A stretch of 64,000 nt of DNA from Patescibacteria group bacterium UBA4664 (GCA_943354575.1 CALRCL010000001.1:2934-66933); one strand, 5' to 3'; positions 27,398 to 40,825 are shown, counted from the first letter of the stretch. Program-made: numbers and translations. The notes: generated by a model not told the origin, from the sequence alone.

Positions 27398-27450
27398 GTT
27401 TCCTCCGATTATTTATATATCTATTATACTACTGTTAATAGATAATAAAA

Positions 27451-27475
27451 GCCCTGCAGAAGCAGGGCTTTTATT
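27451..27475. terminator. bidirectional hairpin (hairpin type T2): GCCCTGC-AGAA-GCAGGGC flanked by T/A runs
   Basis: Perfect 7-bp GC-rich stem with TTTTATT on the plus side and an A-run on the other. Lies between repeat A and the lemA promoter region. Confidence 0.5.
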
Positions 27476-27476
27476 A

Positions 27477-27494
27477 TGGTGGGCAAGGAGGGAC
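27477..27494 (-). repeat. 18-nt duplicate of the tRNA-Leu(TAA) 3' end (GTCCCTCCTTGCCCACCA)
   Basis: Exact copy of the T-stem 3' half, acceptor 3' strand and CCA of the tRNA-Leu located 147 bp away, same orientation. Confidence 0.6.
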
Positions 27495-27495
27495 G

Positions 27496-27609
27496 GCGTC
27501 CGCCGCGGCGGACTTTTCCCTGCGGTGCTCGGTAAATATTCAAGTGAACTTGATATTTACACTGCGCTCCTCGTACACCGAACCCTGGGTATCGAGCCCG
27601 CTCAAACAT
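27496..27609 (-). repeat. ~115-bp structured repeat element, copy A (inverted relative to copy B at 40541-40655)
   Basis: About 90% identical to the reverse complement of 40541-40655. Contains a conserved 12-bp AT hairpin (GTAAATATCAAG/CTTGAATATTTAC) and a GC hairpin (GTCCGCC/GGCGGAC) whose loops differ between copies. Confidence 0.6.
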
Positions 27610-27610
27610 A

Positions 27611-27630
27611 AAAAATAACCCCTGGCGGGG
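27611..27630 (-). terminator. hairpin type T1 (CCCCGCCAGGGG + T-run) immediately 3' of tRNA-Leu
   Basis: On the minus strand, CCCC-GCCA-GGGG followed by TTATTTTTT directly after the tRNA-Leu CCA. Confidence 0.45.
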
Positions 27631-27640
27631 CTACTTTTTA

Positions 27641-27726
27641 TGGTGGGCAAGGAGGGACTCGAACCCTCAATCCTTAAAGGAAACGGATTTTAAGTCCGTC
27701 GTGTATACCAATTCCACCACTCGCCC
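27641..27726 (-). tRNA. tRNA-Leu (anticodon TAA)
   Basis: Manual fold: acceptor GGGCGAG/CTTGCCC, D-arm, anticodon stem ACGGA/TCCGT with loop CTTAAAA, long variable arm, T-arm GAGGG-TTCGAGT-CCCTC, encoded CCA. Confidence 0.9.
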
Positions 27727-27746
27727 ATGGTAGTTGTGTATTCTTA

Positions 27747-27820
27747 TGGAGGCGCGTACCGGATTTGAACCGGTGTAGAAGGTTTTGCAGACCTTTGCCT
27801 AACCACTCGGCCAACGCGCC
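27747..27820 (-). tRNA. tRNA-Cys (anticodon GCA)
   Basis: Manual fold: acceptor GGCGCGT/ACGCGCC, anticodon stem AAGGT/ACCTT with loop CTGCAAA, T-arm ACCGG-TTCAAAT-CCGGT, discriminator U, CCA. Confidence 0.9.
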
Positions 27821-28004
27821 CCGTGCCATATATTATACCTTGCTTGCTTAATCTGTAAAAGGGTAGAAATTTAGCGGACTTTTTGGTATGATTAGTCGCG
27901 TACTTTGCTCTTTCAAATATCCTTAAATGGCACGCTTTTTATAATTCAATTCAAAATTACTAGCCAATTGAATATAAATGCCGTAGCATTATTGAAGTAA
28001 CAAT

Positions 28005-28080
28005 GGCGGGATAGCTCAGTTGGTAGAGCAGTGGCTTGAAGAGCCTCGTGTCCTCGGTTCGAATCCGAGTCTCGCCACCA
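28005..28080 (+). tRNA. tRNA-Phe (anticodon GAA)
   Basis: Manual fold: acceptor GGCGGGA/TCTCGCC, D-arm GCTC-AGTTGGTA-GAGC, anticodon loop TTGAAGA, T-arm CTCGG-TTCGAAT-CCGAG, CCA. One U-U mismatch in the anticodon stem. Confidence 0.85.
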
Positions 28081-28110
28081 AAGATTATTCTTTTAATTAA
28101 ATTACACCAT

Positions 28111-28187
28111 GCGGGTGTAGCTCAGTTGTTTAGAGCGCTTCCTTGCCAAGGAAGAGGTCGAGAGTTAGAGTCTCTTCACCCGCACCA
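28111..28187 (+). tRNA. tRNA-Gly (anticodon GCC), integration target of the downstream island
   Basis: Manual fold: acceptor GCGGGTG/CACCCGC, anticodon stem CTTCC/GGAAG with loop TTGCCAA, CCA. D-loop AGTTGTTTA and T-loop TTAGAGT show a U19:A56 covariation. The last 9 nt are shared with the serine recombinase CDS. Confidence 0.9.
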
Positions 28188-38797: not shown

Positions 38798-38985
38798 ATA
38801 TAACCGACAAAGATATTACTGAGTTCCAGACTTTATACAAAGCACGATTTGGCAAAGATATTGATAGGACCGAGGCGAGAGATAAATTATCAAAGCTGGT
38901 CCGACAAATGGAAATCGTGTATCAACCGATAACTAAAAAACAAGTTAAAGATTTGAAAGAGAAAGACGCAAAAAAACAGTCCTAA
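38794..38985 (+). CDS. small hypothetical protein (63 aa) translationally coupled to the upstream nuclease gene
   Basis: ATGA overlap with the preceding gene. Lys/Asp-rich, no motif. Followed by a terminator hairpin. Confidence 0.4.
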   Translation: MNITDKDITEFQTLYKARFGKDIDRTEARDKLSKLVRQMEIVYQPITKKQVKDLKEKDAKKQS

Positions 38986-39066
38986 AACGATTAAGCTTAT
39001 CGCTTATGCTACAATATGGGTAATGCGTTTATCGCAGGGGGACGACTCGTAAGAGCGTCGCAGAAG

Positions 39067-39091
39067 GACCCGCAAGGGTCTCTTTTGTTTT
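39067..39091 (+). terminator. intrinsic terminator of the RM operon
   Basis: GACCC-GCAA-GGGTC followed by TCTTTTGTTTT. Confidence 0.5.
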
Positions 39092-39863
39092 ATAGGAACT
39101 TTTTACCGTTGCCCTTTGGTCCAGTTGCACCAGTGTAATATTTCGGTTGAATAGCCTCTATAACTGTCTTTGTAAAGTTATTATCTAGAGTTTCTATTCT
39201 CTCATTTGAGTGCAGAATATCAATCTTTGAATTAAGTGCGATTAAGTCTGCGAACTCAAGTCCATGAATGAGATGATATTTTGTTTTCATCTTAATTTCT
39301 TTTGAGGTTAATCGTGCCTGTACATCCGTTGCGTTAGCGAAGTTCGTACCATTTGCATAAAAGTCCGAATACACTTCCTCTATTTTTCTATCTTCCTTTT
39401 TTCCACGAGCCTCTGCCATGACATCGCCTTTTGCATTGGCATACTTAAGAAACTTGCAATATCTTTCCAGCATACAAGTCAGGCTGTAATGATAGGGATG
39501 TTCGGGCGTTACATATTTATCTTGATGACCGTTCTTATCAATAACAACAGTAATTATTTGATAGTCTACATCTTTAAGTAGCGACAATAACTGCCCATCA
39601 AATTGTTTTCTTATATCTGCTTCTTGTAGCTTTGCAAACCCATTCTTAGAAGCCATTATATCTGTAAGATGAAGAGGTGGCCTAAGGTCATGGTCAGTGT
39701 AAAAATGTGAACGGAGTTGCTCAACTCTCTTTATCACTTCATTATCGTAAACATCTTTATTTATGATAATGCCAGTCAAGCCAAGATATCGTTCGGTTAT
39801 GGCTTCATTCCTTTGGTAGCGGTGATGTCCCGACTCATCAATATATAATCTGTAAACTGACAT
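39090..39863 (-). CDS. DUF3800 family protein
   Basis: N-terminus YRLYIDESGHH (the YIDESG signature I recall for DUF3800). Start taken at the internal Met 4 nt downstream of the stop of the upstream HTH gene. Confidence 0.55.
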   Translation of the reverse strand: MSVYRLYIDESGHHRYQRNEAITERYLGLTGIIINKDVYDNEVIKRVEQLRSHFYTDHDLRPPLHLTDIMASKNGFAKLQEADIRKQFDGQLLSLLKDVDYQIITVVIDKNGHQDKYVTPEHPYHYSLTCMLERYCKFLKYANAKGDVMAEARGKKEDRKIEEVYSDFYANGTNFANATDVQARLTSKEIKMKTKYHLIHGLEFADLIALNSKIDILHSNERIETLDNNFTKTVIEAIQPKYYTGATGPKGNGKKFL

Positions 39864-39867
39864 ACAT

Positions 39868-40251
39868 CTATAATAACTGAAGTGCGTGTAGTTCTTTGTC
39901 AGAATAGTTCTCAAACTGGTCATCTGCACTAACGGTTGTCAGTGTCTTTACGCTAAACTCGTCCTTACGCTTACGCTCTAAGTACCACATACTAGTCTTC
40001 ACATCGCCTCTACGAATAGCATTGCAGACAGTGTGCCTTGCTTGAATAATCATGAATAGCTTTGCACGCTCCATTTTGTCCATAAAATGAACATCATCTT
40101 CAAGTCTCTTATAATATGCAGAGCGAGAAACACCAGATATAGAACACGCTTCTTCTACCGTACAACCAATAGCAAATGCCTGTTCTAATTTACGGACAGT
40201 GTCATGGTCAAAGACTGTAGGTCTTCCTCTTGTTTTTGTAGCAACTTTCAT
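39868..40251 (-). CDS. HTH DNA-binding protein (terminase-small-subunit/resolvase-HTH-like)
   Basis: TRGRPTVFDHDTVRKLEQAFAIGCTVEEACSISGVSRSAYYKRL: classic HTH with a GRP lead-in. Forms an operon with the DUF3800 gene. Confidence 0.45.
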   Translation of the reverse strand: MKVATKTRGRPTVFDHDTVRKLEQAFAIGCTVEEACSISGVSRSAYYKRLEDDVHFMDKMERAKLFMIIQARHTVCNAIRRGDVKTSMWYLERKRKDEFSVKTLTTVSADDQFENYSDKELHALQLL

Positions 40252-40430
40252 ATTCCTATTATAGCCCTTTTGTATCTGTTGATGTATAATAATTAGTAAT
40301 AGAGTTCAAGCTGTAACCAAGTCAGGTGATAGACTAAACTCTTGTACCAATTCACGCAACGCATAATCGTCAACTAACTCAATAGATTTAGTTAGAAGTA
40401 TGTCAACTGCGTAGCACCAAAAAAATATAA

Positions 40431-40507
40431 GGGTGATTAGCTCAGTTGGCTAGAGCGCTTCGTTTACACCGAAGATGTCGGGGGTTCGAGTCCCTCATCA
40501 CCCACCA
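40431..40507 (+). tRNA. tRNA-Val (anticodon TAC)
   Basis: Manual fold: acceptor GGGTGAT/ATCACCC, D-arm GCTC-AGTTGGCTA-GAGC, anticodon stem CTTCG/CGAAG with loop TTTACAC, T-arm GGGGG-TTCGAGT-CCCTC, CCA. Confidence 0.9.
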
Positions 40508-40514
40508 TAATAAC

Positions 40515-40541
40515 AGTCCTGCTTGTGCAGGGCTTTTATTA
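40515..40541 (+). terminator. hairpin type T2' (CCTGC-TTGT-GCAGG + T-run) directly after tRNA-Val
   Basis: Near-identical to hairpin T2 at 27451-27468 except for loop nucleotides. Followed by CTTTTATTAT. Confidence 0.5.
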
Positions 40542-40655
40542 TGTTTGAGTGGGCTCGAACACAGGGTTCGGTGTACGAGGAGCGCAGATGTAAATATCAA
40601 GCTTACTTGAATATTTACCGAGCACCGCAGGAAGAAGTCCGCCAGTGGCGGACGC
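40541..40655 (+). repeat. ~115-bp structured repeat element, copy B
   Basis: About 90% identical to the reverse complement of 27496-27609. Same two hairpins, with differing loops (CTTA vs TCA; AGT vs GC). Confidence 0.6.
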
Positions 40656-40659
40656 TATA

Positions 40660-40674
40660 CCTCATCACCCACCA
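40660..40674 (+). repeat. 15-nt duplicate of the tRNA-Val 3' end (CCTCATCACCCACCA)
   Basis: Exact copy of the last 15 nt of the tRNA-Val found 153 bp upstream, directly after repeat copy B. Confidence 0.6.
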
Positions 40675-40683
40675 ATAAAAATA

Positions 40684-40703
40684 CCCCCGCCAGGGGGGTT
40701 TTT
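40684..40703 (+). terminator. hairpin type T1' (CCCCC-GCCA-GGGGG + TTTTT)
   Basis: GC-rich stem followed by a T-run. Homologous to the T1 hairpin beside tRNA-Leu. Confidence 0.5.
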
Positions 40704-40825
40704 ATTGGCAGATGTGTCTCGAACCCAGGATTCGGTCAAAATATTTTACTCGCTTATGCTTATTGATGTATAATTATAGAATGTATTATTATTAATTATA
40801 TGTCGTTAAATAGAAAGATGGTCGA

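Follow-up and report, generated by a model that had tools for sequence, protein, structure and literature searches.

The system treated here is a non-coding cassette of about 115 nt, called E below, which is present twice in a stretch of 64,000 nt from Patescibacteria group bacterium UBA4664 (GCA_943354575.1, CALRCL010000001.1:2934-66933; this whole stretch is called the window), and several described systems come close to it. Miniature inverted-repeat transposable elements (MITEs) and small palindromic elements such as Correia, RPE and PATE occur in tens to hundreds of copies and duplicate 2-10 bp of their target. Casposons and other integrations of the Cas1 type make target duplications of 14-15 bp, in some families at tRNA 3' ends. 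Small RNAs linked to tRNAs include 3' external transcribed spacer RNAs such as 3'ETS-leuZ, and tRNA-like tails are found on viral RNAs. Saccharibacteria and other bacteria of the candidate phyla radiation (CPR) have tiny, gene-dense genomes, and to our knowledge almost nothing has been described of their non-coding RNAs or of their smallest mobile elements. The cis-mobilizable element (CIME) is an established concept (PMC5704250), and elements that integrate into tRNAs leave partial tRNAs at their sites, where newer insertions push older ones outwards (bioRxiv 10.1101/2020.12.28.424599).

E resembles CIMEs and decayed tRNA islands in having a direct repeat of the tRNA 3' part on both sides, with the intact tRNA on one side, and no recombination genes inside; it also shows a precise presence/absence polymorphism and an older remnant pushed outwards. 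It differs in size, the whole unit being about 163 nt as compared to kilobases in the described CIMEs, in that no related autonomous element was found, in that its internal hairpins are conserved as structures, and in that nearly the same cassette is found at two tRNAs, each time with the cognate repeat. The likeness to MITEs lies in the size range (100-170 nt), the lack of coding capacity, the many hairpins and the insertion polymorphism between strains. Unlike MITEs, E is limited to one or two copies per genome (two and a fragment in the window, and one match per species genome), is flanked by a repeat of 17 nt that corresponds to the end of a specific tRNA, and has no clear terminal inverted repeats, the ends having only the layout of a hairpin and a T-run in common. 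An integration of the Cas1 type would place a long, target-derived repeat at a tRNA 3' end, and the constant match of this repeat to the local tRNA would follow directly, but E has neither a Cas1 or polymerase gene nor the terminal inverted repeats of casposons, is two orders of magnitude smaller, and resides in a bacterial CPR host. As in the tRNA-linked small RNAs, E is structured, lies directly behind a tRNA and ends in ACCA followed by a terminator; in contrast to them, a strong terminator stands between the tRNA and E, and there is no conserved tRNA-like fold.

E is a real, conserved and lineage-restricted cassette without a protein gene, tied to the 3' ends of two tRNAs and matching no known family. 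The reading we prefer, although tentatively, is that it is a non-autonomous mini-cassette of the CIME or MITE kind, flanked by attachment (att) sites at tRNA 3' ends, and gained, lost and stacked by recombination at a core of 17 nt. If mobile, E would rank with the smallest site-specific cassettes yet described at tRNA ends and would suggest a recombinase that acts in trans; if it is an RNA, it would represent a new tRNA-coupled class. It persists across lineages with saturated synonymous sites, keeps its hairpins while their sequence is replaced, and is always accompanied by a copy of the host tRNA 3' end.

A unit bounded by the tRNA 3' end

Read in the direction of the tRNA, both loci have the same order: tRNA, a GC-rich terminator hairpin with a T-run, E, a repeat of the last 17-18 nt of the tRNA including CCA, and a second hairpin with a T-run (Table 1). 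A preliminary description of the window had pointed out a pair of inverted elements of about 115 bp and about 90% identity, each directly behind a tRNA after a short GC hairpin and T-run, and each followed by a duplicate of that tRNA's own 3' end and another hairpin. This picture holds at both loci. The two copies form an inverted repeat that is 93-97% complementary in blocks and 91% identical overall, and a 27-nt core of E occurs exactly twice in the window, as compared to 0 expected (100 shuffles). The tRNA-end copy is exact over its whole length at the Leu locus and has one mismatch at the Val locus. The two internal hairpins already described, an AT-rich one and one with a GTCCGCC/GGCGGAC stem (the GC hairpins of Table 1), are present in both copies with differing loops.

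Table 1. Positions of the features at the two E loci and of the neighbouring island, counted from the first nucleotide of the window.
Feature	Position	Strand	Remarks
tRNA-Leu(UAA)	27641-27726	-	ARAGORN, Rfam tRNA; last 17 nt (27641-27657) are the proximal core repeat
Proximal terminator hairpin B, Leu locus	27610-27639	-	GTAGCCCCGCCAGGGGTTA and T-run; A-tract upstream
E, Leu copy	27495-27609	-	5' hairpin motif GAAC/GTTC; invariant linker GGTGTACGAGGAGCGCAG; AT hairpin 27532-27561; invariant linker CGAGCAC; GC hairpin 27498-27513
Distal core repeat, Leu locus	27477-27494	-	Exact 18-nt copy of the tRNA-Leu 3' end through CCA, GTCCCTCCTTGCCCACCA
Distal terminator hairpin A, Leu locus	27447-27472	-	GCCCTGC...GCAGGGC; LemA promoter region next
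tRNA-Val(UAC)	40431-40507	+	ARAGORN, Rfam; last 17 nt (40491-40507) are the proximal core repeat
Proximal terminator hairpin A, Val locus	40513-40536	+	
E, Val copy	40541-40657	+	AT hairpin 40589-40618; GC hairpin 40637-40653
tRNA-Val 3'-end copy	40658-40674	+	17 nt with 1 mismatch; 15 nt exact at 40660-40674
Distal terminator hairpin B, Val locus	40677-40703	+	
Truncated further copy of the E 5' motif	40707-40737	+	GGCAGATGTGTCTCGAACCCAGGATTCGGTC, 31 nt; homologous to the E start in L015 and L006
Island, not part of E	28188-40419		12.2 kb between tRNA-Gly and tRNA-Val; GC about 39% as compared to about 45% elsewhere

Evidence for a discrete unit comes from two related contigs (contigs are labelled L and a number below). 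L072 and L073 carry the same LemA gene and are about 98% identical over 2.1 kb, with one indel of 163 nt that corresponds exactly to core, terminator and E, and the native tRNA terminator is present once, on the far side of the indel. At the two loci of the window and in all related copies, the core repeat reproduces the 3' terminus of the tRNA up to and including CCA, and it follows the adjacent tRNA in three versions: CTTGCCC at tRNA-Leu, ATCACCC at tRNA-Val in the window group, and ATCGCCC at tRNA-Val in L078, where the tRNA itself has the G. In L040 (Val) and L019 (Leu) the repeat is lengthened to about 50 nt and takes in the terminator of that tRNA. At the Val locus of the window a complete unit is followed by another core, terminator B and the first 31 nt of another E. 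From its sequence, this looks like a new unit stacked before an older, truncated one, and the 31-nt fragment like the remnant of that displaced cassette. The last 17 nt of the tRNAs that host E follow the consensus TCCCTC-NNNN-CCCACCA, that is, tRNA-Val(UAC) and tRNA-Leu(UAA).

The terminator types are swapped between the loci, B then A at tRNA-Leu and A then B at tRNA-Val, and where the site behind tRNA-Leu is empty, B serves as the native terminator of this tRNA. As an A-tract lies upstream of B, this terminator works in both directions. A and B do not occur anywhere else in the 64 kb, and E as a generic terminator repeat of the genome was therefore rejected. In one relative, L041 (300-581, compared with L040:1100-1375), the loop and the inner stem of the distal terminator are the reverse complement of those in the proximal one (CTTGTC as compared to GACAAG), which looks like a flipped hairpin or an inverted copy of it.

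The occurrence of E was surveyed first with exact motifs, in 185,579 species genomes and in the JGI metagenomes, and then with nhmmer outward from LemA homologues. The scans gave five true matches, each at the same tRNA cluster. About a dozen distinct copies were found in contigs of related Saccharibacteria/Patescibacteria, all downstream of tRNA-Val(UAC) or tRNA-Leu(UAA) in one five-tRNA cluster. The window itself is assigned by its flanking proteins to uncultured freshwater Saccharibacteria/Patescibacteria. Besides the window, E lies behind tRNA-Val in L015, L040, L041, L006 and L078; behind tRNA-Leu it is found in the window lineage, L005/L019/L023, L003, L006 and L072. The Leu site is empty in L035-L042 and L073, with the Val site filled in L040 and L041, and neither tRNA has an E in L071, L084 and L085. 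In L043, tRNA-Val is the only tRNA of the cluster that was found, and it has no E. The patchy distribution can be explained either by repeated gain or by a single old gain followed by losses through the repeats. Searches of plasmid and phage collections with BLAST gave nothing relevant, three scans of viral contigs gave only chance matches in high-GC DNA, and across the lineages E is not consistently accompanied by any protein gene.

A long form of the element was found in L006 (Patescibacteria MAG Baikal-deep-G192), where the first 50 nt or so of E are split from the rest by 300-370 nt of non-coding DNA. The inserts in its two copies (L006:5626-5980 and L006:6930-7177) have an identity of 86% and lie between copies of the 18-nt repeat GGTGTACGAGGAGCGCAG; they have no Rfam match, no open reading frame (ORF) and no copy elsewhere in the sequences compared. 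This form fits with E being two fused element ends, and the short E could be derived from a long form of the L006 type by deletion.

According to the reading that we prefer, a recombinase encoded elsewhere would insert the unit of core, terminator and E, about 163 nt, in trans. The loci are laid out like an integrated element, with the tRNA and its 17-nt core (attL-like), a replacement terminator, about 115 nt of E, a second core (attR-like) and then the original downstream sequence of the tRNA. Gain and loss would both take place at the 17-nt core, and deletion or unequal exchange between two cores could remove or stack a unit. The copies would be kept alike, and their terminators shuffled, by homologous recombination and gene conversion, both between the two inverted copies and with imported DNA of relatives. 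Observed directly are the anatomy, the precise indel, the limitation to two tRNAs, the agreement of the repeat with the tRNA sequence, the stacked remnant and the lack of coding capacity; that a site-specific recombinase is involved, in which direction the change went (insertion or loss) and any role of the hairpins, as recombination structures of single-stranded DNA or as RNA, are what we infer.

The preliminary description had suggested a small non-autonomous element at tRNA 3' ends that copies its target. The 163-nt indel, the empty Leu sites, the stacked partial copy and the match between repeat and local tRNA speak for this part of it, but E is not an element of high copy number: a check of copy number and position gave one or two copies per genome, always next to a tRNA of the same cluster. 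This low number is one of several points that count against a mobile cassette. The 64-kb window holds no gene for a tyrosine recombinase, transposase, Cas1, reverse transcriptase or HUH enzyme, and apart from the serine recombinase of the island all its genes with a Pfam match are housekeeping genes. No full-length relative with the same ends was seen in the genome, metagenome and viral collections, although the scans were for exact motifs and this absence is unproven. Furthermore, a simple element with its own attP, on moving between Val and Leu, would bring with it a donor-type repeat and not one of the recipient type, so that retargeting, target duplication or later gene conversion must be invoked. 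Deletion through the repeats together with gene conversion, without active targeting, could yield the same pattern, and the patchy distribution can equally be explained by one ancient origin with such losses. Finally, the conserved structure and linkers treated below point to a function in single-stranded form, which the scar of a double-stranded att site does not need.

Conserved hairpins and the nature of E

E is conserved to a degree that the ordinary spacers of the cluster are not. Between the window and the L040 lineage the fourfold degenerate sites are saturated (0.34 in LigA and 0.61 in LemA), and E is still 86-95% identical. Within the tRNA cluster only promoters and terminators are conserved comparably, and the other spacers cannot be aligned. 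GGTTCGG, GCGCAG, CGAGCAC and the core are invariant across ten diverse copies. The three local hairpins are kept as well, with 97.7% of the helix cells paired in the first ten copies as compared to 29-43% when the partners are slid. The central hairpin is made up of three unrelated sequences, each with a hairpin as its minimum-free-energy structure; in a dinucleotide-shuffle test of four variants, two were clear (z -3.7 and -6.8) and two were not (z -1.0 and -1.7). The 3' GC hairpin has either 7 bp or the form of a 3-bp mini-hairpin. Since the hairpins are kept despite the turnover of their sequence, and the linkers are invariant despite saturated synonymous sites, we suggest that E acts as a single-stranded nucleic acid, either RNA or folded DNA.

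The same observations bear on the possibility that E is a passive by-product, in which an old rearrangement or insertion at tRNA-Val was copied to tRNA-Leu via the similar 3' ends and then homogenised by gene conversion and import, with no function. The 3' regions of the two tRNAs do have 15 nt of the T-arm and 13 of 17 core positions in common, terminator types have been shuffled between the loci, and an actual import can be seen in L003. There, a stretch of about 300-400 nt in an otherwise identical genome (L003:526-880, against window 27430-27726) has been replaced by the version of the L019 lineage, from a base in the tRNA-Leu D-loop through the E core to the distal terminator. As the L019-type core and the D-loop variant came together, this is an ordinary homologous import, and not a sign of hypervariability in E, as which it had also been considered. 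Neutral DNA would, however, not be expected to keep 86-95% identity with invariant blocks where synonymous sites are saturated and spacers unalignable, nor hairpins through complete replacement of their sequence, and we find a passive origin quite improbable. The alleles of the central hairpin have their own distribution: allele ii occurs behind tRNA-Leu only, allele i behind tRNA-Val and, in the window and L006, also behind tRNA-Leu. This fits with old paralogues in which the Leu copy has occasionally been converted by the Val copy.

A possible alternative, to which we give less credence than to a mini-cassette, is that E and the tRNA-end copy make up the gene of a small, structured RNA or belong to the tRNA transcript as its cis-acting 3' trailer, read in the tRNA sense and ended by the distal terminator. 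The tail would then stay identical to the last 17 nt of the tRNA because both act through one partner, either the 5' strand of the acceptor and T-stem of that tRNA or a factor that binds the 3' end. A tRNA-linked small RNA had been proposed in the preliminary description too, and in its favour are the hairpins kept through sequence turnover, the invariant linkers and the intrinsic terminator directly after the tail. Changes of the wobble type fit the tRNA-sense strand only, U-G in the GC stem of L040 and G-U in the AT stem of L003, and on that strand the GUGU/GCGC stem has changed from U-G to U-A twice; the tail also co-varies with the A/G variant of tRNA-Val. The points against it concern promoters, terminators, distribution and pairing. 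Inspection of all copies revealed no conserved promoter on either strand; a sigma-70-like site is absent from E, which has only variable TATTAT-like hexamers derived from the terminator T-runs, the promoter rules of this phylum being uncertain. E is boxed in between strong terminators that work in both directions, and since it is often absent in close relatives, such an RNA would be dispensable. Most of the covariation goes back to very few independent events, and every long-range pairing that was tried fails in some copy: the helix P1 predicted by RNAalifold (GCUCG/CGAGC) is the same in each of the first ten copies, but L078 breaks it, and GAGG/CCUC is absent from allele ii. An acceptor-like stem between columns 11-17 and 130-136 also fails, as position 12-135 never pairs, another pair does so in half of the copies, and L040 needs a different register.

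Rfam lends no support to an RNA of a known kind. With Rfam 15 (tRNA, tmRNA, signal recognition particle RNA, 6S, RNase P, riboswitches, group II intron domains and others) only the real tRNAs of the window pass the gathering thresholds, and at relaxed E-values (<=10 and <=1) E and the long L006 form give only weak, terminator-like chance matches. A match to a known RNA family or to the end of an insertion sequence, which would have spoken against a new element, was looked for with a negative result. ARAGORN and the Rfam tRNA model detect no tRNA-like fold in E, and both programs are negative for a tmRNA-like reading of the 5' motif GGAUUCG. A tRNA pseudogene was rejected as well: beyond the repeat there is no significant similarity to the five tRNAs of the cluster, the best match being the antisense of the tRNA-Val anticodon arm (p about 0.01-0.02, uncorrected for 20 tests). 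Nor does E encode a small protein. A 61-aa ORF with an ATG start (27424-27609, minus strand) runs through E, the tRNA-end copy and the terminator, but it is unconserved and spurious, and a 45-aa frame of the Val copies is broken by indels and stops in the others. A guide RNA, with E as scaffold and a 17-nt guide for TnpB, Cas12k or IscB, was dismissed, as there is no such gene nearby and no conserved neighbour across lineages. A retroviral-type primer-binding site or a retron remains an analogy only, there being no reverse transcriptase.

Conserved folding could also mean that E is a substrate in the form of folded single-stranded DNA for an enzyme encoded elsewhere, either an HUH enzyme (rolling-circle Rep, IS91 or IS200/IS605 type) or one of the Xer type, with the hairpins presenting the cleavage site. 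The structure of the central hairpin is kept without conservation of its sequence, and there are subterminal hairpins near both ends of E. The strand of the AT hairpin that is antisense to the tRNA (window plus strand, around 27546-27556; in the Val copy, minus strand of 40589-40618) furthermore carries the 11-mer AACTTGATATT, which is identical to 11 nt across the gene-A nick site of phiX174 (J02482, 4300-4310). This 11-mer is, however, found in allele i only, and as it is absent from alleles ii and iii the match, in AT-rich sequence, is probably due to chance. The window has no HUH gene, the two end hairpins are unrelated to each other, and such elements are normally multi-copy and without a 17-nt repeat, all of which makes this explanation highly improbable. 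An AT palindrome of the dif/Xer or lox kind was rejected on the grounds that the arms change completely between alleles.

The readings as a mini-cassette and as a tRNA-coupled small RNA are not mutually exclusive. In a bolder reading, E would be a new kind of tRNA-coupled element, a self-insulated cassette of about 160 nt that could be retargeted between Val and Leu without a protein gene. It would be either the gene of a structured RNA or active itself in the form of folded single-stranded DNA. Its tail would be kept identical to the last 17 nt of the host tRNA, either because it acts on the tRNA, for instance by competing for the 5' strand or for a 3'-end factor, or because insertion copies the target. 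We consider this unlikely.

The tRNA cluster as a site of inversion and insertion

The inverted arrangement of the two copies had also led to the suggestion that they serve as recombination substrates for inverting the segment between them. The contigs of this population include no inverted isomer, and all those spanning a junction have the arrangement of the window. In the related L084, the whole cluster has nevertheless been flipped (L084:1459-2600): the five tRNAs are inverted between the same flanks on the FolD and LemA sides, with FolD next to tRNA-Leu and LemA next to tRNA-Val, opposite to the arrangement in the window and L078. This shows that exchange between the inverted ends of the cluster has happened in evolution. 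A working switch that flips the tRNA cluster and the island could draw on this event and on the inverted repeat of about 200 nt and about 90% identity, but L084 has no E copies. Moreover, each tRNA-end copy matches its own tRNA everywhere, a match that exchange within E would break, and flipping tRNA genes that have their own promoters has no evident effect. The sole recombinase at hand is the integrase-type serine recombinase of the island, and L003, which lacks the island, still has E. A working switch is therefore scarcely credible.

The cluster consists of tRNA-Leu(TAA) and tRNA-Cys on the minus strand and tRNA-Phe and tRNA-Gly on the plus strand, all within 27641-28187, and tRNA-Val(TAC) on the plus strand on the other side of the island. 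The island encodes a large serine recombinase (28176-29696), whose 3' end overlaps tRNA-Gly, a type III Mod/Res pair, a Cas4-like DUF2779 protein, a DUF3800 protein and several ORFs without a family, and GCACCA, the end of tRNA-Gly, is found at both of its junctions. L003 is about 100% identical to the window over 4 kb, has E, and lacks the island, with tRNA-Gly and tRNA-Val 12 nt apart; without the island, the two E copies bracket only the five-tRNA cluster of about 0.9 kb. The island is an unrelated and later insertion.

Repeated insertions of another kind are found at this tRNA cluster as well. In the lineage with 88% LemA identity, in L036 (1-1545, reverse strand) and also in L037-L042, tandem cassettes of about 400 nt lie between tRNA-Gly and tRNA-Val, each starting with (C)GCACCA and encoding a protein of 86 aa. 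With these cassettes and the serine-recombinase island, the cluster is a hotspot of insertion. E marks it as a place of both island insertion and inversion, which is useful for following genome plasticity in uncultured lineages and for understanding assembly breaks at the locus. Such breaks were seen in L065-L069, independent assemblies that break at the same two points of the Val locus, corresponding to window position 40558, after the GGGCTCG of E, and 40734, after the partial E, which hints at structural variants of this locus within those samples.

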